Origin: an uncultured delta proteobacterium
GTDB taxonomy: Bacteria; Myxococcota_A; Polyangia; Polyangiales; Polyangiaceae
DNA length: 64,000 nucleotides
Direction of reading: 5' to 3'
Assembly (NCBI GenBank): GCA_963763745.1
Contig: CAVXQJ010000001.1
Span: forward strand, 66,431-130,430
The notes under the pieces were generated by a model, which saw only the letters and a program-made list of their open reading frames with translations, was not told where the DNA came from and ran no database searches. Below, one piece after another: positions 2,641-41,150 of the stretch; within the stretch, counting starts at the first letter, position 1; each line of letters starts with the position of its first letter. The translations under genes were made by a program, and so were the position numbers.

Positions 2641-2649
2641 TTCGCCACG

Positions 2650-3316: not shown

Positions 3317-3331
3317 CGGGAGGCCGCCGCC

Positions 3332-6685: not shown

Positions 6686-9992
<3,307 letters not shown>

Positions 9993-10003
9993 AATCAGAA
10001 GAA

Positions 10004-10066
10004 ATTGACAGGGAGAGGGGGAGGTTGGGAGAAAGTTTTTTTTAGAAAAATCTCCCATTCTCCCTC
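10004..10066 (+). terminator. GC-rich/poly-purine element with T8 run between dnaK and the next gene (possible terminator or other structured element)
   Basis: gggagagggggaggttgggagaaagTTTTTTTTagaaaaatctcccattctccctcgctccc. GGGAGA/TCTCCC form a short inverted repeat around an unusual (for 70% GC DNA) T8/A5 tract. Confidence 0.2.
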
Positions 10067-12679: not shown

Positions 12680-12749
12680 CAGCGCTTCGTGGCGCGATTT
12701 TGTCAGCCGATGCACCTCCGCGAGCGTCGGTGTATGGTGAGCCCTTCAC

Positions 12750-12823
12750 GCGCCACTAGCTCAGTTGGATAGAGCGACGGCCTCCGGAGCCGTAGGTCAG
12801 AGGTTCGAATCCTCTGTGGCGCG
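12750..12823 (+). tRNA. tRNA-Arg (anticodon CCG)
   Basis: Cloverleaf: acceptor GCGCCAC/GTGGCGC, D-arm TAGCTCAGTTGGATAGAGC, anticodon stem ACGGC/GCCGT with loop CTCCGGA (anticodon CCG), T-arm CAGAGGTTCGAATCCTCTG, discriminator G. Followed by CCC (CCA not encoded). Confidence 0.9.
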
Positions 12824-12929
12824 CCCCGAAAAACACCGGCGATCCGTGATCTGCGAAATCGGCGTGGCAGTTTCGTGGAAGTTGCACAGAGCTTGCTGCA
12901 AGCGCTCGCAGAGGCGTGGACGAGGATCT

Positions 12930-17541: not shown

Positions 17542-17694
17542 CGGGAGCCATCACGGGCGCGAGCGGTCATGAAAGCGTGAGGATACCCAGTCATGTAGAT
17601 GACGAACGTCTCGTCTTCGGGTCGGAGAAAACTCCCATGTTGGGGAAACCGATCAAAGCTCTAGAAATCGCGAAAATAAACGGTGTTGTTTGGG

Positions 17695-17735
17695 GTGCGA
17701 CAGAGGATTCGAACCTCTGAGGGCGATCCTGCCCG
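17695..17735 (-). other. Partial tRNA 3' end (T-arm plus acceptor-like tail, CCA encoded) in inverted orientation relative to tRNA-Arg; likely island boundary remnant
   Basis: Minus strand reads TCAGAGGTTCGAATCCTCTGTCGCACCCCA. The 21 nt TCAGAGGTTCGAATCCTCTGT are identical to 12799-12819 of tRNA-Arg. No matching 5' acceptor/D/anticodon arms upstream, so not a complete tRNA. Confidence 0.55.
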
Positions 17736-17739
17736 CGTG

Positions 17740-18102
17740 TCAGCGGCAACTCCCGGTGGTGGCGCCGCCGTCATCGCTCACGAGCGTGCAGGTCGTCGGG
17801 CAGCCGCCGCAGTCCGCGCGAGAATCCGAGCACTCGTACGCGCCGACATTCGGCGCGGCGCAGAACGCTGGAACGCAGCTCGTGATTGCGCAGGTCCAAT
17901 CGCTCCACCCTCCATCGGCACCGCACGCGCGTGTTCGTCGACCGCACGATTCGATCGGTCCTGCGCACTCGACAGCGCCGGCCTCGCACGGCTCGCTGCC
18001 GAGCGCAGCATCGCGAGCATCGCCGGCGTCGGCATCCGGCGAAGCCACCTCGCCACCGCATGCCGTCGCCAACACGAACATTCCCACGAGTGATCGTTGC
18101 AT
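17740..18102 (-). CDS. Small secreted cysteine-rich protein (120 aa, 11 Cys), hypothetical
   Basis: N-terminal signal-like MQRSLVGMFVLATACGG, then Cys-rich acidic sequence (CEAGAVECAGPIESCG...CSDSRADCGGCPTTC). A second Cys-rich ORF fragment lies at 18263..18466 on the same strand. Low certainty because of GC-driven open frames. Confidence 0.3.
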   Translation of the reverse strand: MQRSLVGMFVLATACGGEVASPDADAGDARDAALGSEPCEAGAVECAGPIESCGRRTRACGADGGWSDWTCAITSCVPAFCAAPNVGAYECSDSRADCGGCPTTCTLVSDDGGATTGSCR

Positions 18103-18510: not shown

Positions 18511-18626
18511 CCGTACCACGGCGATTCCGAAATGGGCTATCGCGTGAACCTCGGCTGCGTCATCGGACTCGACGTGCTCGCGCTCGAGATTGGAGTCATC
18601 GACGGACGCTCGATGCCAGTCGCCGA
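18511..18626 (+). repeat. 116-nt direct repeat, copy 1 (115/116 identical to 41292..41407); overlaps the 3' end of Kelch paralog 1
   Basis: cgtaccacggcgattccgaaatgggctatcgcgtgaacctcggctgcgtcatcggactcgacgtgctcgcgctcgagattggagtcatcgacggacgctcgatgccagtc[g/a]ccgac occurs twice in the same orientation. Contains internal inverted repeats (CATCGAcggacgcTCGATG; CTCGAcgtgctcgcgcTCGAG). Confidence 0.85.
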
Positions 18627-21013
18627 CGGCACGGACGTCTTCTAGCGCCGAGCAACATCAAGGTCACCAAGGTCCATGCGCCACCATCGGAACGACTGCC
18701 CGTAGCCATCGAGCACCCCGAGCTGTTGTTCGCCAGCGTGCGACAGATGCCAGTCGAGTCGCATACCGCCGGCGAAACACAATCACTCACGGAAGCGCAT
18801 TTGTCTTTGCAAGCTCCGTTCGTGTCGCATTTGAACGGCGTGCAATCTTGTGAAGCGCCTGCATCGTTCGACGCCGTGTACTCATTGATGCACCCGCCGC
18901 CAACGACACACGCGCCGTTTTCACACACGTATCCAGAGGCACAGTCGACGTTCAACGTGCATGTGGTCTTGCACGCTGTCGGCCCAGCACACGCAAAGTG
19001 ATTTGGACATCCCGTCGCGACTCCGGTCGCGCAGTGGCCCTGTCCGTCGCAGGTATTGCTGCTCTCGGTTGCGTTCGAGCACGAGCTTCCACATGGCGTG
19101 CCGGATGTCGTGTATGTGCATTGCAATGGATCATTTTGCGCGCACGACCCGCCGCACGTCGTTCCGCTACCTGCGCAGGGAGCGCGCACTCCATGAGGCA
19201 CGCCCGTGATCGGCGTGCACGTACCCATCGATGTGGTTACGTCACACGCCTCGCATTGCCCGGTGCATTGGGTGTTGCAGCACACGCCATCGACGCAAAA
19301 CGAGCCGTTGGTGCACTCCGCATCGCTGCCACACTGACCGCCTTGAGTCTGGTCACTGAAGATCAGCGCGGTCGTCAATGACTGATAGATGTATTGTGAG
19401 AGTTGCGTCGAGCCACCCGCGACGAGGACATTGCCCGTTGCAAGCGATGTCGCGGTTTGCTGGCTCGCATTGGCCGGAAGTGGCGACATCGTGCTGAACG
19501 TTCCAGCAGCCGGGTCGTACAACTCGGTCGTGATGAGATAGCCGTTCGCGATCGTGTAGCCGCCGCTGACGATCACTTTCCCGGACGAAAGCAATCCCGC
19601 GACCGCCTGGGAACGCGCGCTCGTCATCGAGCCGGTTGGCGCAAACGTACCCAAGCTTGGGTCGTAAAGCTCGGCGGTCGTGTCCGACGTGCCACCGGCG
19701 ATAAGCACTTTACCCGATTGGAGCCGTGTTGCGGTGTGCATCGAGCGGCCCTCTGACATCGCACCGCTCGTTGCGAACGTACCGAGTGATGGGTCGTAGA
19801 CCTCGCTCACCGCAGAAGAAGAACCACCCGCGACCAGCACCTTGCCGTTTGCGAGAAGCGTTGCAGTTTGACCCAAGCGAGCAACGTTGGCCGACCCGGT
19901 CGCTGCGAACGTGCCTTGATTGGGATCGTAGAGCTCCGCCGTCGTGCTGTTGTTCGTTCCCCCAACGATGAGGACCTTGCCGGTGCTGAGCGTCATCGCA
20001 CTCGGTTGATAACGTCCTACGACAAGGTCTCCCGTTGATGTAAACGTGCCGGCGACGGGATCAAAAAGGAGAGCGGTCGTCACTCCACCGACGACAAGCA
20101 CTTTGCCCGAGGGAAGGAGTGCGGCCGCAACTGCTGTACGATTGTCGGGCATCGAACCCGTCGTGGCGAAGGTTCCGCTCACGGGATCGTAAATTTCAGC
20201 GGTGGCATTTCCGCCGGAAACGACGACGACGCGACCGTTTTGAAGAAGAGCAGCGGCATGTCCGTAACGCGCAAACGTCATTCCACCGGTAGCGCTCCAC
20301 AGAGGGTCGAGCACTGCTGGATAGCGGACCGAGCTCCACGTGAGATGAAGTTGACACGTTGACGACGCCGGTGGCGTTGGAGCGCGATCCCACGGCGGCG
20401 TCGCTGACTCGTCGAAGGCACAACCCGTCAAAGACGCTCGCGCAGTCGTCTTCGCGCCATCAGCACTCAGCACGAAAGGGGCCGCAACGCGGAGTCGCGG
20501 CGCTCCGTGCGCATCCAAAAGCTCGAGCGTGTTCGAAACGAGCCGGAGCCCGGAGACCCGCGAGACGTCGATGTCATAGACGACCTCCTCGCGCTCTGGC
20601 TTGGACTCGAACAACACATCGTCCTCGGTGCCGTCTGGCCGAGCGTGGTGAACCACGTCAGCACCGTGCAGTGCTCGGCGATAGATCACGACGTCATGGA
20701 AAACCTGCGCAGTGGAATCGGACGCGTCGTGCAGCGCAAATTCGATTGCGACGTTCGATGTCGCGTCCTCGACCAGCGCGTTCGAGCGCGCGTCGTGTGG
20801 CAGTGCGACGATTGTTTGGGGGACGCCGCGCGATTCGTCCGCGGTAATCCGCAAGCGCTCTCCATCATCGACGAAGCCCAACGACGATGTCGCGCTCCAA
20901 CCCAACCTCGCGCGAAGAGCGGAGACATTCGTGACGCCGCCGTCGACGTCAATCGATGCGTCATGACCGCATGCGAAGAGCGCGACGACGACAAGAACGG
21001 CGTTACGCGACAT
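18596..21013 (-). CDS. Secreted Kelch-repeat beta-propeller protein with C-terminal Cys-rich module and MYXO-CTERM sorting tag (paralog 1 of 7)
   Basis: - Start MSRNAVLVVVALFACG (signal).
- Conserved N-domain (GTEDDVLF...PRLRVAAPFV...YPAVLDPLWS).
- ~8 repeats of GKVLVxGG...AELYDPxxGTFxxTGSM (Kelch-like).
- Cys-rich block CVDGVCCNTQCTGQCEACDV...DCTPFKCD.
- C-terminal GCSMATGSRSDGGAWTLVTLMLLGARRR (Gly-Cys, TM, Arg tail). Confidence 0.75.
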   Translation of the reverse strand: MSRNAVLVVVALFACGHDASIDVDGGVTNVSALRARLGWSATSSLGFVDDGERLRITADESRGVPQTIVALPHDARSNALVEDATSNVAIEFALHDASDSTAQVFHDVVIYRRALHGADVVHHARPDGTEDDVLFESKPEREEVVYDIDVSRVSGLRLVSNTLELLDAHGAPRLRVAAPFVLSADGAKTTARASLTGCAFDESATPPWDRAPTPPASSTCQLHLTWSSVRYPAVLDPLWSATGGMTFARYGHAAALLQNGRVVVVSGGNATAEIYDPVSGTFATTGSMPDNRTAVAAALLPSGKVLVVGGVTTALLFDPVAGTFTSTGDLVVGRYQPSAMTLSTGKVLIVGGTNNSTTAELYDPNQGTFAATGSANVARLGQTATLLANGKVLVAGGSSSAVSEVYDPSLGTFATSGAMSEGRSMHTATRLQSGKVLIAGGTSDTTAELYDPSLGTFAPTGSMTSARSQAVAGLLSSGKVIVSGGYTIANGYLITTELYDPAAGTFSTMSPLPANASQQTATSLATGNVLVAGGSTQLSQYIYQSLTTALIFSDQTQGGQCGSDAECTNGSFCVDGVCCNTQCTGQCEACDVTTSMGTCTPITGVPHGVRAPCAGSGTTCGGSCAQNDPLQCTYTTSGTPCGSSCSNATESSNTCDGQGHCATGVATGCPNHFACAGPTACKTTCTLNVDCASGYVCENGACVVGGGCINEYTASNDAGASQDCTPFKCDTNGACKDKCASVSDCVSPAVCDSTGICRTLANNSSGCSMATGSRSDGGAWTLVTLMLLGARRRPCRRRLASSVRR

Positions 21014-23549
21014 CGGCACGCACTCGTTTCCTGCGGAGACCGATGACGAGGCCGAGAACAGCGAGACCGATCGCGGCGTCCGGCGGACCGTCGGATGCTG
21101 CACACCCACCGCCGTCTCCATTCGTGGGCGGCACGCAATTCCCTGCGGTGTTGCAGATGTTCGGCGAGACGCAATCGTTAACCGACTGACACGTTGTCTT
21201 GCAAGCGCCCGAACCTTGGTCGCACTCGTAGGGCGTACAATCTTGTGCGGGCCCGGTCGGACCCTGCGAGGTGTGATCGCCCGAGCAAACTGCGCTCGTG
21301 CTTGGTGTGCAAGCGCCACCCGAGCAGGTGAAGCCTACAACGCAGTCGGTCTTTGCGACGCAAGTCGTCTTGCACGTGTTTGCGTCTGCGCACGTCAAGC
21401 TGCCAGTGCATTGATGCGGCGGAGCGACGATACAAGCCCCTTGCCCGTCGCACAGGCTATCCGTTTCGGTGGCGTTGGCGCACGTGCTTCCGCAAAGCGT
21501 CGTCGCGGGTGGATAGGTGCAGGCCGTCATGCTCAGCGTCGTGCATGAAAGGCCACAAACACCGCCAGCGTCCGCGCCGCAGCTCGGACGCGTGCCATGT
21601 GGCGCTCCTTGAACTTGGGTGCAGGTACCAAGTGATCCTTGCACGTCGCACGCTTCACATTGTCCCGTGCAGGTCGATTTGCAACATACGCCATCCACGC
21701 ACGCGAGCCCCGTGGCGCAATCGTTCGTTACATTACATACGTCGCCGGCACCGGATATCGCGAGGATCTCCGCGGCAGCATAGCCGCCCGAAAACTGATA
21801 CGTGTACGATGCGCCTCCCGTGACGAGTATTCTTCCAGGCGCAAATAGCGTTGCGGTGTGCCCACCGCGACCGAGGTTCATGGACACCGTTGCGCCGAAG
21901 GTGTTGTTCGACGCGTTGTAGATCTCCGCGCTTGCGACCGAGTTGGCGTCGACCGCGGCGACTCCACCCGTCACGACGACGTCTCCCGAGGCCAGCAGCG
22001 TGGCCCCTGCAAATCCGCGAGCAAGCGCCATGGGGTTCGTTGCGGAGAACGTGGCGTTCACGGGATCGTAGAGCTCCGCGCTCGTGAGGTCGGCACCGAC
22101 GGTCTGCGTCGATCCGCCGGCGACGAGTACCTTGCCGTTCGACAGCACGACACCGATGTGATCGCCCCGGGCGGTCGCGAGCGATCCCGTTGGTGCGAAG
22201 CTCGTCGTGTAGAGCTCCGCGCTCGTGAGCGCGCTGCCTCCGGAGAATCCACCGGCGATCAGCAAACCCGTAGTGACGATTGATGCCGTGTGATCGGAGC
22301 GCGCGGTTCCGAGCGAGCCTGCGTTCGAGAACGTCCCGGCCGTTGGATCGTAGAGCTCGCAACTGGTGAGTTGCCCGCCGCCATTTTTGGCTCCGCCGAC
22401 GACGAGCACTTTGTTGGACGCGAGCATCGTCGCGGTATGTCGTGAGCGCGCCGTTGCTAACGAGCCAGTCGATGAAAATGTGCCGCTGTTGGGATCGTAC
22501 GTGTCCGCGCTTGCGCTCAGGGTTCCACCGCCGTTGTCACCACCCACGACGAGCACTTTCCCCGTCGCAAGAAGCGTCGCTGTATGGGCTATACGCGGTG
22601 TCGTCATCGATCCCGTTGCTGCAAACGTTGTCGTCTGCGGATCAAAGAGCTCCGCATTCGCGAGCCCATCACCTCCCGCGATGAGCACCTTTCCGGACGC
22701 GAGCAATGTCGCCGTGTGCAACATGCGCGGAGTCGTCAATGAATTCGTCGTGGTCCACTGTGGGTCGAGCAACGCCGGATATTGCACGTCGTGCCACGTC
22801 ACGTGAATTTCGCAGACGCCCGCTCCAGGCTCGGTGACCGGGCGGCCCCATGGAGGCAGCGGATTGTCGTCGTATGCGCATCCAGCAACGTGCGTCGAGG
22901 CCGACGTCACGACACCATGCTCGTCTACGAGTCTTGGTGGCGACATCCGCAAACGCGGTGTGCCGCTCGCATCGACGAGCTCGAGGACGTTACCGACGAG
23001 CCTCACTCCGCGAACGTGTGAAACGTCTAGGTGATAGACGACCTCTTCGCGCTCGGGCGCAAAGTCGAAAGCGATGAAGTCTTCGACGCCCTCAGCGTGC
23101 ACGCGTTCGACGAGATCAAAACCCGCAAACGCGGAAGGGTAGATCGCAATCCCGCCCGCAACTGCGATTGGCGTCGGCGCGGTGTGGTCGAGCGTGAGCT
23201 CGACTTGGATCTTCGACAGTGGGTCTTGTAAGCGCACGGCGCCATTCGCCCGGAGCGGCAGCTGCACTGCGCCTGCGTGCGGCGAGCTTCGTTCAGCGGG
23301 AATGATCGGGATCGCCGTCGAACCGAGCTCGAAGCGCGTCGCGACGCTTTGGCCGAGAATCGGAGTGCGCTCGAAGTTTGCACCGTGAGTTGCGTATGCG
23401 AAGCGCTGGCGGATCTCGCCGATTCGCACGGCCGCTTCCGCGGGCTTCGCAGGGGTATTCGAAACACCAGACGAGACCTCGCTGCAACCCCAAGGCCCCG
23501 CGATGAATGCGGCGGCGATCGCGTAACAAGCACACCGAACTACGTTCAC
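21003..23549 (-). CDS. Secreted Kelch-repeat / Cys-rich / MYXO-CTERM protein (paralog 2)
   Basis: Probable GTG start (VNVVRCACYAIAAAFIAGPWGCS signal). Same N-domain (GVEDFIAFDFAPEREEVVYHLDVSHVRGVRLVGNVLELVDASGTPRLRMSPPRLVD). Kelch-like repeats (GKVLVVGG...ELYDPxxGTF). Cys-rich block CVDGVCCKSTCTGQCEACDV. C-terminal GGCAASDGPPDAAIGLAVLGLVIGLRRKR. Confidence 0.75.
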   Translation of the reverse strand: MNVVRCACYAIAAAFIAGPWGCSEVSSGVSNTPAKPAEAAVRIGEIRQRFAYATHGANFERTPILGQSVATRFELGSTAIPIIPAERSSPHAGAVQLPLRANGAVRLQDPLSKIQVELTLDHTAPTPIAVAGGIAIYPSAFAGFDLVERVHAEGVEDFIAFDFAPEREEVVYHLDVSHVRGVRLVGNVLELVDASGTPRLRMSPPRLVDEHGVVTSASTHVAGCAYDDNPLPPWGRPVTEPGAGVCEIHVTWHDVQYPALLDPQWTTTNSLTTPRMLHTATLLASGKVLIAGGDGLANAELFDPQTTTFAATGSMTTPRIAHTATLLATGKVLVVGGDNGGGTLSASADTYDPNSGTFSSTGSLATARSRHTATMLASNKVLVVGGAKNGGGQLTSCELYDPTAGTFSNAGSLGTARSDHTASIVTTGLLIAGGFSGGSALTSAELYTTSFAPTGSLATARGDHIGVVLSNGKVLVAGGSTQTVGADLTSAELYDPVNATFSATNPMALARGFAGATLLASGDVVVTGGVAAVDANSVASAEIYNASNNTFGATVSMNLGRGGHTATLFAPGRILVTGGASYTYQFSGGYAAAEILAISGAGDVCNVTNDCATGLACVDGVCCKSTCTGQCEACDVQGSLGTCTQVQGAPHGTRPSCGADAGGVCGLSCTTLSMTACTYPPATTLCGSTCANATETDSLCDGQGACIVAPPHQCTGSLTCADANTCKTTCVAKTDCVVGFTCSGGACTPSTSAVCSGDHTSQGPTGPAQDCTPYECDQGSGACKTTCQSVNDCVSPNICNTAGNCVPPTNGDGGGCAASDGPPDAAIGLAVLGLVIGLRRKRVRADVA

Positions 23550-23661
23550 CAACCCCTCCGTTTCCGTTCGATTCCATCTTGGGAGGTCGATCGACGCAAG
23601 GAAAAAGGTGCCTCGTCCGCCGCCTATTGCCGCCGCCAAGCACCGCTGGCAGAGTAGCGTG

Positions 23662-24705
23662 ATGGATCGCGATCTCGAACGCGCGCAGTTGCGAGTCGGC
23701 GCATCCTTGCGCGGAAAATACCTACTCCAACGTGTGCTGGGCGTGGGTGCGATGGCAGCGGTCTACGAGGCGACGCACCGAAACGGAACGCGCGTCGCGG
23801 TCAAAGTGCTTCACACCGAGGTCGCTGCGATCCCCGACATCAAGAAGCGTTTCCAGCGCGAGGGGTACATCGCGAATCGCATCGAGCATCCGAGCGTCGT
23901 CCGCATCACCGACGACGACGAGGATGTCGACGGAACGGTCTTCGTCGTGATGGAGCTTCTGCAAGGCCACACGCTCGAGACCGAGCTGAAAACGTGTGGC
24001 GGTCGGCTTCCTCCGTCGCGGGTCATCGCGATGGGTGATGCCGTGCTCGACGCGCTCGAAGTGGCTCACGCAGCAGGCGTCATTCATCGCGACATCAAAC
24101 CCGACAACGTGTTTCTCACGCTCGGTGGAATCAAGATCCTCGATTTCGGAATCGCGCGCTTGATGGACATCTCCAGCGTCACGAAGAGCGGGCAGATGAT
24201 GGGCACTCCGGAGTTCGTTGCGCCGGAGCAAGCGGGTGGACGCATTCACGAAATCGACGGCCGCACCGATCTCTTCTCCGTCGGTGCGATGATGTTCACG
24301 ATGCTGACGGGAGACTTCGTGCAGCACGCGCGCACGCCAATCGAATACATGGTCTTCGCCGCGACGAAACCCGCACCGCCCATTCGCTCCGTCATGCCCG
24401 AGCTCGACCGCAGCTTGGCCGAGGTCATCGACGTTGCACTGGCGTTCGAAAAAGAAAAACGCTGGGCTTCCGCACGTCAAATGCAAGCAGCGTTGCGAGG
24501 CGCATCCTTTGGGTTGGAGGAGACCGTGGCAACGACGGGAGCCTACGAGCGATTGCAAGCGATGCGCGCTGGGCGGGAGAGGCGAACCACCGACCCGATG
24601 CCGCCACGAGCGAATCAGCAGAGACTGCCTGAGGTGTCGAGCACGCGCACTGTTCCGATGATGAGTCCTGCGTCTGAGCAGCCTATTCCGTTGAAGCGGA
24701 AATAG
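23662..24705 (+). CDS. Ser/Thr protein kinase (Hanks-type), divergent from paralog 2 and upstream of paralog 3
   Basis: Glycine loop GVGAMAAVYEA, VAVK, HRDIKPDN catalytic loop, DFG, GTPEFVAPE activation segment. ~348 aa, no TM. Confidence 0.85.
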   Translation: MDRDLERAQLRVGASLRGKYLLQRVLGVGAMAAVYEATHRNGTRVAVKVLHTEVAAIPDIKKRFQREGYIANRIEHPSVVRITDDDEDVDGTVFVVMELLQGHTLETELKTCGGRLPPSRVIAMGDAVLDALEVAHAAGVIHRDIKPDNVFLTLGGIKILDFGIARLMDISSVTKSGQMMGTPEFVAPEQAGGRIHEIDGRTDLFSVGAMMFTMLTGDFVQHARTPIEYMVFAATKPAPPIRSVMPELDRSLAEVIDVALAFEKEKRWASARQMQAALRGASFGLEETVATTGAYERLQAMRAGRERRTTDPMPPRANQQRLPEVSSTRTVPMMSPASEQPIPLKRK

Positions 24706-24773
24706 ACGAAACAATAACAACTAACTCCGCTCGTCGCGTTCTCGAGTCGCGCGCGGACAACAGAAGGGGGTGC

Positions 24774-27590: not shown

Positions 27591-27726
27591 CGTCCCGCGA
27601 CTTTCTCATCGCCGCGGGCGGAACCCTCGCGCTCTTGTGGTGATCCCGCCTCCACAAAACCGAGAGCCCCAACACACCATCACAGCGGTGGCAAGTGGTA
27701 TCAGCCGAACATTTGGTCGCAAGTGG

Positions 27727-32555: not shown

Positions 32556-32567
32556 TTTCCCCCCAAA

Positions 32568-34265
32568 CTAAAATTCGTACTTGAACCCAAGACTCGGAAC
32601 GAGCGCGATCACCACGGTGCTCGTGAGCCGGTCGTTTGCAAACGATCCCGCGCCGTCAGTCCCCGTGAGCACCTGCGTTGTTTGATTCCACCGCGGCGGG
32701 CTGAGCGCGGGCATCACGAGGAGCTCGGCGCCCAAGCTCACCTCGACGTGATCGCCAAACTTGCGACCGAGTCTCACTTCGGGCGCCACGAACAAATAGA
32801 TGGCACTTGGCGCTTGCGTGGTGTCGACCGAGTACGTCCCACCCTTCGCCGCGGTGAAGGAACCGGTTCGATGATCTCGTGTCGAACCGAAAAACACACC
32901 GACCCCGAGGCGCACCGTGAACGGCCAGTCGCCGCGCGTGCGATATTGCCCGTCGATGCCGGCAATCACACCGCCGAATAGCAAGCTATCGTTCGCCGTG
33001 CCTTGGCTAACCAGCGCTCCGGGCGATGTTATCGTCGTAGCTCGATTGGAGATGGTATTCGTCAATAGTACGTAGCCGGCGCGCAAACCGACGCCGATAC
33101 CCGATCCGAATATGTACGTACCGTGGAGCACGCCCTCGAATCCAATCGGAAGGCCAGCGCTGCATCCAGCGGTGCATTCCGAGCTGCTCTGCATGTCGCT
33201 CGCCGCGAGAAGACCGAGCGGCGCGCCGAGATCGACCTCGAGCGCGATTCCGCTGTGGCCCGCAGGCGGCGCGATGACGTCGAGTTTTGCGTCGACGATC
33301 GCGTGATCGCCGGAGTCGAGCTTGATGTCGCGCGTGAACGCTCCATAACCTTCGAGCGTCGCCGCGATCTTGTGGGTGCCCACTGTGAGGCGACCGTCCC
33401 AGACACCGCGGCCAACAGGCACTTCATCGATCGTCACCGCAGCAGACGCAGGATTCGGCGTGACGCGCAACGTGGCGGCGAGCTCTTGCATCGTGAGATC
33501 GAGCGACGCAACGTCATTGAGCTTGATGTTGACCAATGAAGGCGGTGTCCCGTCGGTTCCCTCGCCACGGAGAAATACCGTGTGGGCTCCCGGAGCGAGC
33601 GCGCCTTCCCACGGAACGTGCCCAACGACTGCGCCATCGACGACGAGCTCCGCTGTTTTTCCCTGGTGCTCGACTACACGCAAACGCCCGGCTTGCGTGA
33701 GCGCGGCGAGTTGCGCGTGAACGACTGCGGCTTGTCTGCCTGCGAGATCGATGCGCGTCTCGAAGGGTAAGGCGCCGTCTTTGGTGACGCGTACGAAGTG
33801 ACTGCCCGCCGAAAGACGAATCGGCCCTTTGAGTGGCGTCTTGCCGCGTTCGACGGAATCGATCGTGACGGTCGCGCCATCCGACGCGCCTTGAATGTCG
33901 ATGGTGCCGACGGACGCTTGCAGCTCCGTGATCTCGCGTTGTGCGAGCGCCCGATCCGCTGGAGACAAATCCTGAAACTCGTGGACGAGCTTTTCGAACA
34001 TGTCGAGCGCTTCGTCGAAGCGACCGACTTTGCGCAAACAGATCGCCGCGTTCTTCGTGTTGCCGCGCGATGGAAAGAGCTCACGCGACTTCAAGAACTC
34101 GACGAGCGCCGCCTGCCATTCTTCGCGGTCGAAATGGGATAGGCCGAGATCGAAGTGGCTGCGCGCCTCTTCCTTCTGCTGGTCGCTCACCTGTCCCCAC
34201 GCATTGATCGACAGGAGTATGGATATGACTATTACTGCAAGAGTAACTGGTCGTCGGATCATCAC
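32568..34265 (-). CDS. Outer-membrane protein: signal peptide, TPR-like N-terminus, PEGA-type Ig-like domains and C-terminal beta-barrel
   Basis: MMIRRPVTLAVIVISILLSINAWGQ signal. TPR-like helical segment (EARSHFDLGLSHFDREEWQAALVEFLKSRELFP...). Repeated PEGA-like beta segments (ATVTIDSVERGKTP; AELVVDGAVVGHVP; AAVTIDEVPVGRG). C-terminal alternating-hydrophobic strands ending ...LGFKYEF (terminal Phe, classic OMP barrel signature). ATGA overlap with the upstream kinase. Confidence 0.6.
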   Translation of the reverse strand: MMIRRPVTLAVIVISILLSINAWGQVSDQQKEEARSHFDLGLSHFDREEWQAALVEFLKSRELFPSRGNTKNAAICLRKVGRFDEALDMFEKLVHEFQDLSPADRALAQREITELQASVGTIDIQGASDGATVTIDSVERGKTPLKGPIRLSAGSHFVRVTKDGALPFETRIDLAGRQAAVVHAQLAALTQAGRLRVVEHQGKTAELVVDGAVVGHVPWEGALAPGAHTVFLRGEGTDGTPPSLVNIKLNDVASLDLTMQELAATLRVTPNPASAAVTIDEVPVGRGVWDGRLTVGTHKIAATLEGYGAFTRDIKLDSGDHAIVDAKLDVIAPPAGHSGIALEVDLGAPLGLLAASDMQSSSECTAGCSAGLPIGFEGVLHGTYIFGSGIGVGLRAGYVLLTNTISNRATTITSPGALVSQGTANDSLLFGGVIAGIDGQYRTRGDWPFTVRLGVGVFFGSTRDHRTGSFTAAKGGTYSVDTTQAPSAIYLFVAPEVRLGRKFGDHVEVSLGAELLVMPALSPPRWNQTTQVLTGTDGAGSFANDRLTSTVVIALVPSLGFKYEF

Positions 34266-35920
34266 ATGCTTCGATCAATGGCCGGTGTAGTGGAGGGCTT
34301 TGTGGTTTTGGTCGTCTGCGGTGCGGCGGTGACCGTCGGCGCAGTGACCGGGGCGCTCGATGCTGCAGCAGTCGGCGTGACGACGGTCACGCCGCCGTGC
34401 TGAGTTTGACGTGTGGGAGTGGGCGTGACCGCGACGGTATCTTTCAGCGCGCTGACCAAGTTTGGACGCGCGCCAGTCTCCGCGATGACGACGTCATCCC
34501 ACTTCTCGTTGCCGTTCTGCACCACATGGACGCGGTGCACGCTTCCGATGTCGCCCGTGACGTCGATCTTTCCGTCGTGCACGACCGCCACCACACCATC
34601 GACGTCGACGCGTGCGTCGCTGGGCGTGATCGTCACTTGGACCGTCCGGCGCGAGCTCGGTAGCGCTTGTTGCGAGGATGACGGCAACGCCGCTGTCGAC
34701 TCCGAGGCGACGGGCGTGATCGCTGCCGCCTTTTGTCTGGATAACGCGGCATACGTTCCAAGCGTACCCAGAACCGCGACACCGCCGACGAGCGGCAACG
34801 CCCACCGTAGCGCCGACTTGCGCGGAACCCCGGCAGGCGCCTGACTCGCGCCGAAACCACCGGTCGTAGACTGCACATTAGCGGATGCGATGTTTGGCGA
34901 CGATGTACCGGGAGATGATATCGCGATGGATGCAGCGAGAGGAGACTGCGGCCCGCTGCGATCCGCGCCGGACACCGTCGGCGTGATTCGCGGCGCGACC
35001 GTCGCGCGCATCGCATCCGGCATCGGAGCGAGCGACGCCTGCGAGATCACTGCGCCATTCGGCAAGAGCGCGAAGATCGCAGCGTGCATTTCGGCAGCTG
35101 TCTGGAATCGATCGCCCGGCTCGTGCGACATCGCCTTGTGGACGATGCTCGCAACCTCGGCGGGGACCCACGGCGCGAGATCTTGCACGGGCTTGAACTT
35201 GCCCGAGTTGATCGCAATGAGCAGCTGGCCGATCGTCTCGCACTCGGCGTGCGGCGTCCGACCGCACAACGTCTCATAAAGGACGACGCCGAGAGACCAG
35301 ATGTCGCCGCGACCGTCCAGCGTCTTGAGACCCAAAGCTTGCTCAGGCGACATGTAAAGCGGTGAACCGATCATCGAGCCCGTGCGCGTGAGCCCGTGAT
35401 CGCCCGCTTGCGCGAGTTGATCCGCCCGCACCTTCGCGATTCCGAAATCGAGAATCTTCACGATGGCGTCGCCCGAGTCGCGCTTGGAGATGAACAGGTT
35501 CGCCGACTTGATGTCGCGGTGAATGATCCCCGCGTCATGTGCGCGCTTCAAACCGAGACACGCGTGAGACAAGAGACGCAATGCGAGATCGGGAGCAATT
35601 GGACCGACGCGGCGAATGAGCTGCTGGATGTCTTCTCCGGAGAGAAGCTCCATCACCATGTACGGATTGCCCGTCGACCCATCGACGCCCGTGTCGAGCA
35701 CTTGAACGACGTGTTCTGACTCGATGGCACCGCTCGCGCGCGCCTCGCGCTGAAAGCGCGTGATGATGTCCGCGCCTTGCGCGAGCGCCTGCGCGACGAT
35801 CACCTTGAGCGCGACGCGCCGTCCCGTGCCCGTGTGGCGTGCTTCATAGACCGCACCCATCCCGCCTTCGCCGAGTTGGCGAATGACTTGGTATTTGTTG
35901 TCGATGATTTGGCCTTGCAT
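34262..35920 (-). CDS. Ser/Thr protein kinase with C-terminal Pro/Ala-rich linker, TM segment and periplasmic/extracellular domain
   Basis: GEGGMGAVYEA, VALK, HRDIKSAN, DFG, SPLYMSPEQ, then SRKSALRWALPLVGGVAVLGTLGTYAAL TM and a ~170-aa C-terminal domain. First gene of a minus-strand four-gene run (kinase-OMP-paralog5-paralog4). Confidence 0.85.
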   Translation of the reverse strand: MQGQIIDNKYQVIRQLGEGGMGAVYEARHTGTGRRVALKVIVAQALAQGADIITRFQREARASGAIESEHVVQVLDTGVDGSTGNPYMVMELLSGEDIQQLIRRVGPIAPDLALRLLSHACLGLKRAHDAGIIHRDIKSANLFISKRDSGDAIVKILDFGIAKVRADQLAQAGDHGLTRTGSMIGSPLYMSPEQALGLKTLDGRGDIWSLGVVLYETLCGRTPHAECETIGQLLIAINSGKFKPVQDLAPWVPAEVASIVHKAMSHEPGDRFQTAAEMHAAIFALLPNGAVISQASLAPMPDAMRATVAPRITPTVSGADRSGPQSPLAASIAISSPGTSSPNIASANVQSTTGGFGASQAPAGVPRKSALRWALPLVGGVAVLGTLGTYAALSRQKAAAITPVASESTAALPSSSQQALPSSRRTVQVTITPSDARVDVDGVVAVVHDGKIDVTGDIGSVHRVHVVQNGNEKWDDVVIAETGARPNLVSALKDTVAVTPTPTRQTQHGGVTVVTPTAAASSAPVTAPTVTAAPQTTKTTKPSTTPAIDRSM

Positions 35921-36030
35921 GTGGGGTTAGCCATTCGAGCATACACGCTTGCCGCGTCGAAGGAATGGCCGACCGTTGACACCGTGTGCGTTGACCTGAG
36001 AAGCTGCGATTCGAAGAGGGAGGCGGGGAG

Positions 36031-36444
36031 ATGCTCGCGAGGTGTCTGGTCATTCTTTCGTTCGGAGTCTGCGGGTGTGGCTCCATGGTCTACACGAACG
36101 TCTTCATTCCAACGCCGGTCATGCTCGGGCCGATCGATCGAATCGGCGGCAAACCGACGCAATCCTCCGGACCCACCACCATCGACGCCGTGATGTACAC
36201 CGACCGTGGGTGGAGCACGGGCGCAGACACTTTGGCGTTGAGTAACGCCGTGCGAGCGAGCCTGCTTGCAGAAGGGATTGGTCCGAAGCAAGTAGGTGAC
36301 GCAACGGTGCGCATCGATGAAATCGCCGCAGGTGAGTACCTGATGTGGACGATTCCTTACCTCACGCCAATCGTCTTAATCCGACATTCGCGCGTCAATC
36401 CACATGGACGCCTGCAGCGCGAAACAGCGCAGGTGTCGCAATGA
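36031..36444 (+). CDS. Small lipoprotein (137 aa), hypothetical
   Basis: MLARCLVILSFGVCGCGS lipoprotein-type signal. Stop overlaps the next start (ATGA). Confidence 0.45.
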   Translation: MLARCLVILSFGVCGCGSMVYTNVFIPTPVMLGPIDRIGGKPTQSSGPTTIDAVMYTDRGWSTGADTLALSNAVRASLLAEGIGPKQVGDATVRIDEIAAGEYLMWTIPYLTPIVLIRHSRVNPHGRLQRETAQVSQ

Positions 36445-36860
36445 AGCGCTTGTTGGCCATGCTCTTGGTGATCTGTTGCGCAGGGTGCGCGGGCGGTCGT
36501 GGTTGGATCAGCGCTCCGACTGCGCAATATCCAGTTTCGCTTTCACATGGCATTCGCGCCGCTGACGGGCATCTGCTCGGTCCGAAAGAAAGAAAAAGAG
36601 TTGGTGGCTTTGACACGTCGAAGACGTTCGTCGCGTTATTCTACGATGCGATCCCGCTGAATGGTTCGTTCGACCTTTCCGATGATATCAATCAGCAGGT
36701 GAAAGCGGTTGGCGGGGAAGCCATCACCGATCTGACCTTCCAAACGAGCCTGTGTGCGCTCGACGCCATACCGGTTCTTCACATCCTCCCGTTCTGGCCC
36801 GGTTGTGCCACGGTTCGTGTCACGGGAAACATCATTCAGTCCCAGCCACCAGCGCAATAA
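36441..36860 (+). CDS. Small lipoprotein (139 aa), possible paralog of the preceding one
   Basis: MKRLLAMLLVICCAGCAGG signal/lipobox. Similar size and weak similarity to 36031..36444. Directly precedes paralog 6 (2-nt gap). Confidence 0.45.
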   Translation: MKRLLAMLLVICCAGCAGGRGWISAPTAQYPVSLSHGIRAADGHLLGPKERKRVGGFDTSKTFVALFYDAIPLNGSFDLSDDINQQVKAVGGEAITDLTFQTSLCALDAIPVLHILPFWPGCATVRVTGNIIQSQPPAQ

Positions 36861-36861
36861 A

Positions 36862-38958
36862 ATGAAACGCAGTATCGTAGTTGGTTTTGTAGTCATCGGA
36901 ATTGCGTGCAACACGAGCCAGAACGAAGCTCGTGGAGTTCCCGCGACCGGAGCGGCGGCGATGGGGACATCTGCGCGCGTGAGCTTGCCGGCTTACGCGA
37001 GCGATGCCGTGACGGTCGAAGATCTCCCGACCCACACCCTGGTGCGTTTTGCGCTGCGTGGTGCGGATCGGGTGCCGTCGACGCTGGCGGGCAAGTCCAT
37101 CGCGTATCGAGGGGCCGTGAGCGGTGCGGATGTCATTCATCGTGTGAGCGAAAACGGAACCGAAGACTCCGTCGTGTTCGCTTCGCGGCCGAACGCTGAG
37201 GAGATTGTTTACGACCTCGACGTTTCGACCATCGCTGGCTTGCGGCTCGTCAGCAACACACTCGAGTTTCTCGACGCGAGCGGCACACCCCGTTTGCGTG
37301 TGGCCCCACCGTTCGTGATCGACCACGATGGCGCGCGCCACGATGCGGCCATGCGTGTCGAAGGATGTGCATATGACGACAACCCCGCGGCGCCTTGGGG
37401 TCGAAGCGTCACGCCACACGCGCAGACTTGCGCGCTACACGTCTCCTGGACTTCACCGTCCTATCCGGCCACGCTCGACCCACAGTGGACCACGACGGGC
37501 GCGATGGCGACGGCGCGCGCGTACCACACGGCAACTCTCCTCTCGACGGGCAAAGTTCTCGTCGCGGGAGGGAACAACGGTTCTGTGCTCTCGAGCGCAG
37601 AGCTCTACGATCTCGGCACGCACACGTTCGCGGCGACGGGTGCACTCGGAACGGCGCGGTGGGAGCACGCCGCCGCAGCATTGACGACAGGAAAAGTGCT
37701 CGTCGCCGGCGGCACTGGTTCGGCCGCTCTCGCCAGCGCGGAGCTCTACGATCCATCCGCTGGGAAATTCTCGGCGACGGGTTCGCTCGTGTCCGCGCGC
37801 TCAGGTCACACGGCAACGGTCCTCTCGTCCGGCAAAGTGCTCATCGTCGGAGGCACGCCATCGACGGCGGAGATCTACAACAACGGCACGTTCACGACGA
37901 CGGGTACGCCAGCAGCGAGCCCAATTGCCGGGCACTCGGCAACGTTGCTTCAATCGGGCGACGTGCTCGTCGCCGGCGGTTACAATCCAAGTGCATTCCC
38001 GGGGTACGCAACTACCATAAGCCAGGTCTATAGCGTAGCGAGTGGCACCTTCTCGAAATCGGGATCGATGACCAACGGGCGTCATGGTCACGCAGCAGCT
38101 CTGCTTCCGTCGGGGAAAGTGCTCGTCGTTGGTGGCTCGAACGTTACTGGCGACACATCGAACCTTGTGTACTTCGATGTTGCCCCTGCCGAGCTGTGGA
38201 GCGCTGGCTCGTTCACAACAACGGCGTCGCTTGCAACCGGACGCGACGCGCCAACAGCCGCGCTCCTCCCGTCGAATCAAGTCCTCGTGGTGGGTGGAGC
38301 GACCAGCACATCGACGGAGCTATACGACCTTGCGGCCGGCACGTTTGGCTCGGGTGGATCGTTGAACGTCGCACGTGATCACAATGCGGCAACGCTCTTC
38401 GCGACCGGAGAAGTGCTAGTGACGGGCGGCAAGAACGCATCGAACGGCTACGAGGCGAGCGCAGAGGTTTATGGGCTCCCCAACGCTTCGACGTGCACGA
38501 ACGACCAAGACTGTGCGTCGGGATTCTGCACGGATGGTTATTGCTGTACGACGGCGTGTACCGCGCAGTGTGAAGCGTGCGACATCGCGGGCTCGCTTGG
38601 CACGTGTTCGCCGGTGATGTCTGGACCCTCACATGGCACTCGCCAAGCATGTACGTGCAATGGTGGTGAATGCGCATCCGGTGCGACGTGCGTGGATGAG
38701 CACACGTCGAATGGTGTTGGCGGCCAGCACGATTGCGCGCCCTACGTCTGCGACGTCAGCGGATCTGGTGCGTGCAAGACGACGTGCGCATCCGTCAGCG
38801 ATTGCTATGCGCCCAACGTGTGCGACTCGACGGGTGCTTGTGTACCACCACAGCAAAGCAATTCCGGTGGGTGCGCCATGGGCGGCTCCGACGGGCGCGA
38901 CGGATCTGTGGTCGCGCTCATCCTCGCGGCGTTGTGCGTGCGCCGGAGACGTCGATGA
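36862..38958 (+). CDS. Secreted Kelch-repeat / Cys-rich / MYXO-CTERM protein (paralog 6)
   Basis: Start MKRSIVVGFVVIGIACN. N-domain (GTEDSVVFASRPNAEEIVYDLDVSTIAGLRLVSNTLEFLDASGTPRLRVAPPFVID), Kelch-like repeats (GKVLVAGG...AELYDLGTHTF), shorter Cys-rich block CTDGYCCTTACTAQCEACDI...DCAPYVCD, C-terminal GGCAMGGSDGRDGSVVALILAALCVRRRRR. Confidence 0.75.
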   Translation: MKRSIVVGFVVIGIACNTSQNEARGVPATGAAAMGTSARVSLPAYASDAVTVEDLPTHTLVRFALRGADRVPSTLAGKSIAYRGAVSGADVIHRVSENGTEDSVVFASRPNAEEIVYDLDVSTIAGLRLVSNTLEFLDASGTPRLRVAPPFVIDHDGARHDAAMRVEGCAYDDNPAAPWGRSVTPHAQTCALHVSWTSPSYPATLDPQWTTTGAMATARAYHTATLLSTGKVLVAGGNNGSVLSSAELYDLGTHTFAATGALGTARWEHAAAALTTGKVLVAGGTGSAALASAELYDPSAGKFSATGSLVSARSGHTATVLSSGKVLIVGGTPSTAEIYNNGTFTTTGTPAASPIAGHSATLLQSGDVLVAGGYNPSAFPGYATTISQVYSVASGTFSKSGSMTNGRHGHAAALLPSGKVLVVGGSNVTGDTSNLVYFDVAPAELWSAGSFTTTASLATGRDAPTAALLPSNQVLVVGGATSTSTELYDLAAGTFGSGGSLNVARDHNAATLFATGEVLVTGGKNASNGYEASAEVYGLPNASTCTNDQDCASGFCTDGYCCTTACTAQCEACDIAGSLGTCSPVMSGPSHGTRQACTCNGGECASGATCVDEHTSNGVGGQHDCAPYVCDVSGSGACKTTCASVSDCYAPNVCDSTGACVPPQQSNSGGCAMGGSDGRDGSVVALILAALCVRRRRR

Positions 38959-41150
38959 ACCTTTGGCGTGCGCTCATCGGCTCGGCGTGTGTCGTCGTCG
39001 TTGTGAAATGCAACGTTGAACCAGACCACGCTCGCACGTCGGCATCGCTACTGGCGGACGTGAATGCACGCGCGTCCGATCTGTACACACGCTACCCGAT
39101 CCTCAACACACGAGAGCCGCACGCCGTATCCGGCAAAGCAGCAACTGACCTACCCAATGTTGCAAGCGGGACCGTGACGGTAGCAGACGTTGCCTCCGAC
39201 GTAGTGATCGCGTTTTCGCTTTGCGGAACCAACGACGCGAACCGCGTCGACATCAACGGCATGTCGATCTATCCCGCCGCACTGAGCGGTGCGGATCGCC
39301 TTCAGCGCGTTGGCGAAAACGGGACGGAAGACTTCGTTGCCTTCGAATCTCGTCCGACGACCGAGGAGCTCCGTTACGACGTGGACGTCTCACGAGTTGC
39401 GGGAGTACGCAGCATATCGAACGTGGTCGAATTTCTCGACGCCTCCGGCACGCCGCGATTGCGCGTAGCGCCCCCATTCGTCATCCAAGCAAACGGTTCG
39501 CGCACGTCCGCGACGCTCGCGCTCGAAGGGTGTGCATTCGACACGGGCCCAGCCCCGTCATGGGGAAGGCCGGTAACGAAACCGGGAACGACGTGCGTCA
39601 TGCGTGTGACGTGGCGTGACGTTGTTTATCCGGCGCTCGTCGATCCACATTGGCAGACGACCGGCAACCTCATTGGAACCAAGACCGGTGGTGCGACGCT
39701 GTTGCAAGACGGACGCGTTCTCATCACGGGCGGTACATCACAGATCTACGATCCAACGACGGCAACGTTTGGTGCCACGGGTGCGATGGGCACAGCGCGC
39801 ACCGATGCAACGGCAACGCTGCTTCCGACGAACCGAGTCCTCGTTGCTGGTGGGGATGGCTCGACGACCGCGCTCGCGAGCGCGGAACTCTTCGATCCGA
39901 CCGCCGGAACGTTCTCTGCCACCGGCGCCATGACGTCACCGCGCGCGCTTCACACCGCAACGCTGCTCAACACGGGAAAGGTTCTCGTTGTGGGAGGGAT
40001 GACGACCGACGCGTACGCCATGCCCGCGCTCACGAACGCGACGGAGCTCGCGACCGCCGAGCTATACGATCCATCGACGGGCAAGTTCACCACGACAGGC
40101 TCGATGAAGGCGGCGCGCGCCTGGCACACGGCGACCCTTCTACCCGACAATACTGTCCTCATCGCTGGTGGATTTTATGAGACGTCGGGCGGCTCTCCGA
40201 ATTTTCCGCAGACTGCAGAGCTCTATGGCAATGGAACGTTCACATCCACGGGCACGATGGCGGCCGCACACGTTCACCACATTGCGATTGCGCTTTCGCC
40301 AGGCGTGCTCATCGCCGGCGGTGGCTACGTATATGAAGGACAGGAAGGAACATCCTACAACTATATCAACGCTGCTGAGATGTACGTTGGTGGCTCCTTC
40401 GTCACGGTTGGCAACATGCTTGCCCAACGCGGCTCTGCAGCCGCGGCGACGCTCCCGTCCGGCGATGCAATCATCATCGGTGGAGGCGCTGGCAACAGCA
40501 CCGAAGTACAATATTCGACGACGGAGATCTTCGACCAGAACAAGAAGACATTTTCGCAAGGCGAGTCGCTGGCGACTCCCTGCGGCGACCCTTTCACCGC
40601 GGCTGTCACGGCGACTGTGCTCCAATCGCACATCGTACTAACCACGTGTGAGGGCGGCGCTGCTTTCCTCTACACGCTCGACAATGGACAGCCTTGCACG
40701 AAGACGTCCGCGTGTGCGTCCGGTTTTTGTGTGGATGGGGTGTGTTGCGACACGGCATGCACTGGTCAGTGTCAAGCGTGTGATGTCGCTGGCGATGTTG
40801 GCACTTGTAGCGCAGTGAATAGCGGCCCTTCTCACGGAGCGCGCCCGTCGTGCACGTGTGACAACGGGCAGTGTTCCAATCACCAATGCTCCGACCCACA
40901 CACGTCGCAATCCACCGATGGTGGCACCGAAGATTGCACTCCATACGTTTGCGCGACGACCGGCTTCTGCTCCACCTCGTGCGCCTCGGTCACCGATTGC
41001 GTCTCGCCGAATGTTTGTGATTCCACTGGGCGCTGCGTGGCACCCCCGAGCGGGTCGGGTGGATGCAACACGTCGAATGGGGCGACAGACGCGTGGTGGT
41101 TGATCGCGCTCGTCGTCGCTTCGCGGCGGCTGAAGCGACGCTTGGATTGA
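38955..41150 (+). CDS. Secreted Kelch-repeat / Cys-rich / MYXO-CTERM protein (paralog 7)
   Basis: ATG overlaps paralog 6 stop (ATGA). Signal MNLWRALIGSACVVVVVKC. N-domain (GTEDFVAFESRPTTEELRYDVDVSRVAGVRSISNVVEFLDASGTPRLRVAPPFVIQ), Kelch-like repeats, Cys-rich CVDGVCCDTACTGQCQACDV...DCTPYVCA, C-terminal GGCNTSNGATDAWWLIALVVASRRLKRR. Confidence 0.75.
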   Translation: MNLWRALIGSACVVVVVKCNVEPDHARTSASLLADVNARASDLYTRYPILNTREPHAVSGKAATDLPNVASGTVTVADVASDVVIAFSLCGTNDANRVDINGMSIYPAALSGADRLQRVGENGTEDFVAFESRPTTEELRYDVDVSRVAGVRSISNVVEFLDASGTPRLRVAPPFVIQANGSRTSATLALEGCAFDTGPAPSWGRPVTKPGTTCVMRVTWRDVVYPALVDPHWQTTGNLIGTKTGGATLLQDGRVLITGGTSQIYDPTTATFGATGAMGTARTDATATLLPTNRVLVAGGDGSTTALASAELFDPTAGTFSATGAMTSPRALHTATLLNTGKVLVVGGMTTDAYAMPALTNATELATAELYDPSTGKFTTTGSMKAARAWHTATLLPDNTVLIAGGFYETSGGSPNFPQTAELYGNGTFTSTGTMAAAHVHHIAIALSPGVLIAGGGYVYEGQEGTSYNYINAAEMYVGGSFVTVGNMLAQRGSAAAATLPSGDAIIIGGGAGNSTEVQYSTTEIFDQNKKTFSQGESLATPCGDPFTAAVTATVLQSHIVLTTCEGGAAFLYTLDNGQPCTKTSACASGFCVDGVCCDTACTGQCQACDVAGDVGTCSAVNSGPSHGARPSCTCDNGQCSNHQCSDPHTSQSTDGGTEDCTPYVCATTGFCSTSCASVTDCVSPNVCDSTGRCVAPPSGSGGCNTSNGATDAWWLIALVVASRRLKRRLD

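Follow-up and report, generated by a model that had tools for sequence, protein, structure and literature searches.

Myxobacterial genomes encode MYXO-CTERM surface proteins by the dozen and eukaryote-like kinases in numbers that reach the hundreds, and to our knowledge very few proteins of either kind have a known partner or ligand. MYXO-CTERM is a tripartite C-terminus consisting of a motif with an invariant cysteine, a hydrophobic helix and a terminal arginine-rich cluster (PMC11980579). Among the described systems, TraA of Myxococcus xanthus (MXAN_6895) and its paralog MXAN_4924 are exported proteins with an N-terminal beta-rich, lectin-like head formed by a PA14 domain, and with a long Cys-rich region of TIGR04201 repeats that was proposed to be a rigid stalk (PMC3325183). 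They end in a MYXO-CTERM tag, and surface anchoring proceeds via myxosortase and the type II secretion system (PMC3325183, PMC11980579). The signal of TraA is of type I (PMC3325183), and its neighbour is the OmpA-type protein TraB. In this study, we analyzed a 64-kilobase (kb) stretch of an uncultured Polyangiaceae genome (contig CAVXQJ010000001.1; hereafter the window, to which all copy counts refer), which contains at 18596-41150 an array of genes encoding proteins of a similar plan. Six of these proteins (P1, P2, P4, P5, P6 and P7) possess an N-terminal domain (N-domain), a Kelch propeller, a Cys-rich module (Cys module) and a sorting tail, and a seventh (P3) carries a different head; two Ser/Thr kinases (K1 and K2), a protein with TPR and PEGA repeats (OMP) and two small putative lipoproteins (lipoA and lipoB) are encoded among them. 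The analysis showed that the array is real, has clear limits and is unusually large, and that its members belong to an undescribed, though abundant, family of probable Myxococcota surface proteins.

Like TraA, the array proteins are exported proteins with a beta-rich head, a Cys-rich stalk and a tail of the MYXO-CTERM type. However, their head is a beta supersandwich followed by a Kelch propeller, their Cys module differs from the TIGR04201 repeats, most copies carry a lipobox, and their neighbours are a Ser/Thr kinase and a TPR/PEGA protein. The radical copper oxidases galactose oxidase and GlxA and the mutarotase NanM/YjhT are also secreted and, like the array proteins, place a seven-blade Kelch-type propeller after a beta-sandwich, but they have neither the Cys stalk nor the sorting tail found in the array proteins, and the copper ligands and Cys-Tyr cofactor residues of galactose oxidase and GlxA are not conserved in the latter. 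An N-terminal beta domain followed by a propeller is likewise seen in the DUF7948 and SBBP surface proteins (e.g., the Leptospira LipL53-type SBBP lipoprotein family), in which the propeller is of the SBBP rather than the Kelch type; the Polyangia versions of these proteins add a Cys stalk and a MYXO-CTERM tail. Finally, PulA is N-terminally lipidated and reaches the cell surface via the type II secretion system, and because of this example a lipobox on a MYXO-CTERM client is plausible; PulA lacks a C-terminal sorting tag, whereas lipidation at both ends is predicted for the array proteins.

Individual domains of P5 and P3 served as tblastn queries against the whole window. The N-domain and the Kelch region were each recovered exactly six times, the Cys module seven times and the SBBP region once, and every match lay inside 18596-41150. 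The E-values ranged from 1e-43 to 1e-58 for the N-domains and the long Cys modules and were approximately 1e-13 for the shortened Cys modules of P6 and P7. A preliminary description of this DNA, made from the sequence alone, had counted seven paralogs sharing the N-domain and the Kelch propeller. This count applies to P1, P2, P4, P5, P6 and P7 but not to P3, which carries DUF7948 and SBBP repeats and has only the Cys module and the tail in common with the others.

The N-domain comprises approximately 190 residues and is preceded by a poorly conserved tether of 40-60 residues. It matched no Pfam model at E<=10 and no NCBIfam family. The consensus quoted in the preliminary description was reproduced in our alignment (GTEDFV..F.S.P..E..VYD.DVS.V.GLRLV.N.LE.LDA.GTPRLRVAPP.V). 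The N-domain of P5 was modelled with a mean predicted local distance difference test (pLDDT) score of 92 as a galactose-mutarotase-like beta supersandwich, and this predicted structure superposed with members of that fold; its nearest relatives are domains of lyases, hydrolases and aldose epimerases, with sequence identities of 3-13%. Among 49 homologs, the most strongly conserved residues belong to the polar motifs GTEDF, LEFLD and PRLRV-PP; D115, E148 and R159 are invariant in 49/49 sequences, and two cysteines are nearly so. Mean identity among the six copies was 45% in the N-domain, 44% in the Kelch region and 53% in the Cys module, as against 14% in the signal peptide and tether. The N-domain is therefore not a hypervariable specificity module, and since it also holds the most strongly conserved polar motifs, the terms "variable" and "polymorphic" that had been applied to it and to the family were not borne out among these copies.

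In the Kelch region, the Pfam models Kelch_1, Kelch_3, Kelch_4 and Kelch_6 scored 45-98 bits (cutoffs 20-25) in the six proteins and found nothing in P3. The double-glycine blade motif was matched 5-8 times per copy, with seven matches in P1, P4 and P6, and the consensus of the six aligned copies shows seven repeats. Only G, D, A, T, L and F occupy invariant positions in this region, and the six-copy alignment of the propeller contains no invariant His, Tyr or Cys. Resemblance to the models of glyoxal oxidase, GlxA and NanM is weak and confined to the level of the repeats: the GlxA model NF052501, whose cutoff is 800 bits, gave 34-67 bits, and the NanM/YjhT models, with cutoffs of 256-416 bits, gave 14-29 bits. 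The low scores on enzyme models and the lack of an invariant Cys, Tyr or His make a catalytic role for the propeller unlikely, and a binding platform would be the simpler reading.

The Cys module matched no Pfam model at E<=10 and no NCBIfam family, and its model in P5 (pLDDT 88) shows little regular secondary structure and had no counterpart among solved structures. The approximately 30 conserved cysteines reported earlier are present in P1-P5, which have 33-34 in module and tail together, but P6 and P7 have only 21-22; 21 cysteines are invariant across all seven modules and tails in the seven-sequence alignment. The Cys modules of P6 and P7 (38470-38955 and 40671-41147) have in common a deletion of approximately 85 residues in their middle, so that the two genes probably descended from one already shortened ancestor. 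In other Polyangia proteins the module occurs after SBBP propellers, in tandem, or with nothing but a signal peptide before it and a MYXO-CTERM tail after it. Because it is found under varied heads, in tandem or alone, it fits the description of a general-purpose stalk. P3 is a further example, with a Cys module 44% identical to that of P5. With 139.7 bits on DUF7948 (cutoff 27) and 210 bits on SBBP over seven stretches (cutoff 20.5), P3 is by its Pfam matches a bona fide DUF7948/SBBP protein in which the stalk and tail of the Kelch proteins stand under a different head. DUF7948 of P3 and the N-domain gave a weak colinear hhalign match whose E-value of 0.003-0.004 is accompanied by a probability of only 9-10%, a level at which homology is not established.

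All seven tails possess a G-C pair, a spacer of 5-15 residues, a hydrophobic stretch of approximately 10-15 residues and a cluster of R/K, as in P4 (STGC..WWLVLGIGGVALRQRKRD) and P7 (SGGC..WWLIALVVASRRLKRRLD); the tail cysteine (C210) and the glycine before it are invariant in the seven-sequence alignment. On the MYXO-CTERM model TIGR03901, with a curated cutoff of 20 bits, P2 and P5 scored 23.3 and 24.2 bits, P6, P3 and P1 scored 15.6, 15.0 and 14.8 bits, and P4 and P7 gave no match at E<=1. The preliminary description had called all seven tails MYXO-CTERM signals and had proposed to judge them by this model; the layout agrees in seven of seven and the score in two of seven, so the outcome is divided. 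A simple pattern found a tail of this kind in 86 of 142 family representatives from other genomes. The MYXO-CTERM tag on the array proteins is very likely real, with formal membership of the model in two of the seven. At the other end, P1, P4, P5 and P6, together with 93 of the 142 representatives, matched a lipobox called by a PROSITE-style regular expression rather than a trained predictor. If both signals are used, a lipid is predicted at each end of these proteins.

Three other ORFs of the window were noted. Lgt-like enzymes have been proposed to perform the lipidating step for MYXO-CTERM proteins (PMC11980579), and a partial Lgt (prolipoprotein diacylglyceryl transferase) domain is found in the open reading frame (ORF) at 1746-3626 (minus strand), probably a housekeeping gene. 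The ORF at 17740-18102 (minus strand), just before P1, encodes 120 residues with a lipobox (VLATAC) and many cysteines and belongs to no Pfam or NCBIfam family. A GH25 lysozyme at 43470-44441 (plus strand; 145.6 bits) has a Cys/hydrophobic/Arg tail of its own, which scored 25.7 bits on JDVT-CTERM (cutoff 27), and is probably another sorted surface protein.

The family is large. An exhaustive profile search over 1.84 billion cluster representatives (50% identity clusters) found 1,529 representatives with the N-domain at E<=1e-3, of which 1,048 remain at E<=1e-30; most are 600-2,800 residues long, and full-length proteins are among them. This result overturned the impression of a rare family given by a word-indexed search, which had returned 66 matches, all shorter than 430 residues. 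Five of the window proteins are themselves representatives, and a sixth representative, for which a later start had been called, matches P6. In the source databases these sequences are named "hypothetical protein", "kelch repeat-containing protein [Polyangiaceae bacterium]" or "MYXO-CTERM domain-containing protein", and all organism names given there refer to uncultured Myxococcales or Polyangiaceae genomes. A scan of reference genomes with P5, using patterns from this single sequence, gave one distant locus with Kelch only. In the library searched, we found no paper joining Kelch with MYXO-CTERM, nor one joining a PEGA domain with a kinase in Myxococc- organisms. Apparent standalone N-domain proteins in three related loci (L002, L003 and L004) were rejected: Kelch ORFs follow directly in another frame and the neighbouring genes are fragmented, as in frameshifted assemblies. 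In another locus (L006 11185-19170, on the same contig as L044), from an NCBI metagenome-assembled genome (MAG), an N-domain gene is followed by a called ORF that reaches the end of the contig; with its 2,662 residues, this ORF could represent a giant member whose Cys-rich region is very long.

The six copies are old paralogs, because all 15 pairs show 40-47% amino-acid identity with saturated synonymous change (dS). Nucleotide identity was 50-55%, and this value together with the saturated dS excludes a recent or assembly-made duplication, which the preliminary description had called unlikely. A rough ratio of nonsynonymous to synonymous change (dN/dS) of approximately 0.3 among the copies points to purifying selection, a value that is unreliable at such depth. 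For every copy, many family members outside the array are more similar to it than the neighbouring copies are. P5 is the copy closest to outsiders; its N-domain is 52-64% identical to theirs as against 39-51% to those of the neighbouring copies, as if P5 were a slowly evolving copy. At most two copies occur together in 88 related loci (in L002, L010/L029, L031 and L033), so six copies in one place are exceptional in this sample, in which many loci are short. In approximately 17 of the top 150 representatives, two complete units lie in one reading frame. In P0187, P0188 and P0191 (proteins from other contigs; L010 10001-16810), the first unit ends in its MYXO-CTERM tail (Cys, helix, RRRR), and the lipoprotein signal peptide of the second unit follows without a break, an arrangement topologically compatible with polyprotein processing. 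In the window, the three pairs P2-P1, P5-P4 and P6-P7 overlap by 4-11 nucleotides.

The preliminary description also connected the array to kinases and to an "outer-membrane PEGA barrel". K1 and K2 pass the Pkinase gathering score of 31.7 bits as Hanks-type Ser/Thr kinases. In OMP, Pfam confirmed PEGA repeats (cutoff 20.8 bits) and TPR, but the barrel had been stated as fact: the C-terminal 230 (234) residues matched no family and form a putative outer-membrane barrel, suggested by the terminal YEF and the composition. At E<=10, Pfam did not support PEGA repeats either in the middle gene of the related locus L035 or in the extracytoplasmic K2 tail, and lipoA and lipoB matched no Pfam or NCBIfam family. 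In L010, a two-unit family protein is flanked by a Ser/Thr kinase and then a TPR/PEGA protein, which is a full-length ortholog of OMP (42% identity over 534 residues, E 8e-138); the locus L029 is nearly identical to L010 and amounts to a second copy of it. In L030 and L032, a family gene is likewise followed by this pair in this order, and in L004, a frameshifted locus of an NCBI MAG, a family gene is followed by a Ser/Thr kinase and then by TPR/PEGA-like sequence, so that the pair is probable there. K2 is approximately 40% identical to the kinases beside the family genes in L004 and L010. An ortholog of OMP occurs alone in L060, and in L014, L018, L035, L042 and L055 a Ser/Thr kinase gene immediately precedes the family gene on the same strand, with a small secreted or membrane protein between in L035. 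Because a kinase followed by a TPR/PEGA gene recurs next to family genes in several unrelated contigs, the link of this pair to the family is probably functional, and the connection drawn earlier thus gains some support; the recurrence of a two-gene pair is harder to put down to chance than mere adjacency of a kinase.

Taken together, the array proteins are most likely lipid-anchored, non-enzymatic and possibly glycan-binding surface proteins. Display at the cell surface, as proposed earlier, would be the natural reading of an exported head, a disulfide-rich stalk and a MYXO-CTERM-type tail. The sorting steps are inferred from the work on TraA and myxosortase (PMC11980579, PMC3325183): Sec would export the protein, the C-terminal helix would hold it in the inner membrane, the tail cysteine would be lipidated, myxosortase would cut the tail, and the type II secretion system would carry the protein to the cell surface. 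There, the stalk would keep the supersandwich and propeller off the membrane, and the head would bind a ligand without catalysis; a glycan is the best guess because of the relatives of the N-domain fold. The six old paralogs would probably offer different specificities. K2 and OMP would probably work with the surface proteins, OMP as an outer-membrane partner or both as a relay of envelope information to cytoplasmic phosphorylation, although these two roles are speculative. We assign a probability of roughly one half to this reading of an exported, surface-sorted, ligand-binding Kelch family linked to K2 and OMP.

Several observations weigh against it. Five of the seven tails miss the curated MYXO-CTERM cutoff; P2 and P7 have no lipobox match by the regular expression, which leaves their signal type ambiguous; and no myxosortase (CPBP protease) or type II secretion gene was found in a scan that covered some of the window ORFs. 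Glycan binding is argued from fold resemblance at 3-13% sequence identity, and beta sandwiches of such a fold can be purely structural. The neighbourhood, too, can be read in another way, in which a structural or adhesin family was duplicated in tandem and the kinases, the PEGA protein and the lipoproteins are chance neighbours in a kinase-rich genome. Kinases are very abundant in such genomes. Approximately 75% of the related loci have neither a kinase nor a PEGA gene nearby, among 45 informative loci, 7 have a Ser/Thr kinase within 3.5 kb upstream, a share that does not clearly exceed the 10% roughly expected by chance, and lipoA and lipoB are without a homolog in the 88 related loci; in addition, tandem and in-frame fused pairs are common in the family whatever the context. 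However, chance would have to place an ordered Ser/Thr kinase and full-length TPR/PEGA ortholog beside family genes in at least four independent contigs, and in the window each of the genes K2, OMP, P5 and P4 overlaps or almost touches the next, as if they formed a single transcription unit. We therefore consider that chance neighbourhood is a doubtful account of the locus, and one to be kept in mind beside the reading of a linked, ligand-binding family.

The head could also be thought to belong to a surface-anchored carbohydrate-active enzyme, for example a polysaccharide lyase of the propeller type, a mutarotase or a radical copper oxidase, in which the supersandwich would be either the catalytic domain or an accessory one. 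Such an enzyme would account for the lyase, hydrolase and aldose epimerase domains among the closest folds of the N-domain, for the repeat-level matches of the propeller to GlxA, glyoxal oxidase and NanM, and for the strongly conserved acidic and basic residues in GTEDF, LEFLD and PRLRV. These residues could, however, equally form a binding site or a domain interface, and the enzyme-model scores far under their cutoffs, the propeller devoid of invariant His, Tyr and Cys and the low identity to any enzyme domain make this explanation improbable.

The parallel with TraA drawn in the preliminary description leads to a further possibility, namely that the proteins are polymorphic kin-recognition receptors whose heads bind identical heads on neighbouring cells, the six copies representing distinct specificities. 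The host is a myxobacterium, several diverged copies exist, and the plan of head, Cys-rich stalk and MYXO-CTERM tail matches the description of TraA (PMC3325183), but the parallel ends at this architecture. PA14 was not found by Pfam, either in the full proteins (E<=0.01) or in the N-domains (E<=10); the TIGR04201 repeat gave no match in NCBIfam (E<=1), and the Cys module none in Pfam. No OmpA-type TraB partner is encoded in the cluster, where the neighbours are Pkinase, TPR/PEGA and two orphan lipoproteins. Among the six copies the N-domain is no more variable than the rest of the protein, the copies are ancient paralogs under purifying selection and not alleles, and four of six match the lipobox pattern instead of a type I signal. 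Recognition of the TraA kind is thus very unlikely here. A more elaborate version of the preferred, linked reading would make K2, the TPR/PEGA protein OMP and the supersandwich-Kelch lipoproteins a trans-envelope sensing device, in which a surface ligand would act through OMP on the extracytoplasmic tail of K2 and thereby on cytoplasmic phosphorylation, and in which the coupled or fused pairs would be made as polyproteins and cut by myxosortase and signal peptidase II into two surface proteins; as a whole, this scheme is a long shot.

The twelve intact genes of the array are packed into four tight blocks (Table 1). Operon-like packing had been noted correctly before, although as three blocks, while the list given with that number contained four. 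P2 and P1 (minus strand) overlap by 11 nucleotides, and K1 and P3 (plus strand) are separated by 68. In K2-OMP-P5-P4 (minus strand) there are, in that order, a 4-nucleotide overlap, a 12-nucleotide gap and a 4-nucleotide overlap, and in lipoA-lipoB-P6-P7 (plus strand) a 4-nucleotide overlap, a 1-nucleotide gap and a 4-nucleotide overlap. A scan for promoters and terminators gave counts no higher than in shuffled controls.

Table 1. Genes of the array, with positions in the window (aa, amino acids; TM, transmembrane segment; nt, nucleotides)
Gene	Position	Strand	Product	Evidence
P1	18596..21013	-	805 aa; lipobox signal, supersandwich N-domain, ~7 Kelch blades, Cys module, Cys/TM/Arg tail	ORF and start, Pfam Kelch, lipobox pattern, seven blade motifs
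P2	21003..23549	-	848 aa; architecture as P1; start codon and signal-peptide type uncertain; 11-nt overlap with P1 start	
K1	23662..24705	+	347 aa; soluble Hanks-type Ser/Thr kinase, 68 nt upstream of P3	Pkinase 132.3 bits; no hydrophobic segment
P3	24774..27590	+	938 aa; DUF7948, 7 SBBP propeller repeats, Cys module, tail; without the shared N-domain or Kelch	Pfam
P4	27727..30090	-	787 aa; family member; 4-nt overlap with P5 stop; lipobox LLAC	
P5	30087..32555	-	822 aa; family member; source of the modelled N-domain and Cys module	
OMP	32568..34265	-	565 aa; signal peptide, TPR, PEGA repeats, 230-aa C-terminal region ending YEF	Pfam PEGA 69.2 bits and TPR
K2	34262..35920	-	552 aa; Ser/Thr kinase, one membrane segment (~residues 375-393), 160-aa extracytoplasmic tail; first gene of K2-OMP-P5-P4	Pkinase 142.7 bits
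lipoA	36031..36444	+	137 aa; small putative lipoprotein, N-terminus ...FGVCGCGS	ORF
lipoB	36441..36860	+	139 aa; small putative lipoprotein, MKRLLAMLLVICCAGCAG...	ORF
P6	36862..38958	+	698 aa; family member, shortened Cys module; lipobox GIAC	
P7	38955..41150	+	731 aa; family member, same shortened Cys module; 4-nt overlap with P6	

The array also stands out from its surroundings by its guanine and cytosine content at third codon positions (GC3). This value was 0.63-0.69 in the six Kelch genes and 0.62-0.77 over 12800-41150, whereas nearly all flanking genes showed 0.76-0.86, the exception being a distal SnoaL gene (58660-60141) at 0.72; the low values stop precisely where P7 ends. The low GC3 could reflect a foreign or variable region beside a tRNA, or weak codon bias. 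A tRNA-Arg(CCG) gene occupies 12749-12826, and after it comes a defence-like helicase gene (HIT, PLD and ResIII, then Helicase_C, Peptidase_S24 and DUF3427), which is split over two overlapping ORFs on the minus strand (15697-17541 and 13556-15976). An island around the array bounded by tRNA repeats found no support: only an inverted partial copy (21/24) of the 3' end of tRNA-Arg was found, at 17692-17715, and none near 41-44 kb. In addition, an Hsp70/DnaK gene is apparently split over ORFs 6978-9008 and 8996-10045 (plus strand) in different frames. The two split genes suggest frameshift errors in the assembly or pseudogenes.

If the array proteins are plain adhesins, the array would represent the ordinary expansion of a lineage-specific family. 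This family comprises more than 1,000 clusters at 50% identity, and two of its domains, the N-domain and the Cys module, are not covered by Pfam or NCBIfam. How the MYXO-CTERM pathway would process proteins with a predicted lipid anchor at each end, or the in-frame fused pairs seen elsewhere, is a question that the family raises, and the recurrent placement beside a kinase and a TPR/PEGA outer-membrane protein offers a concrete hypothesis that ties a surface protein to a specific kinase.

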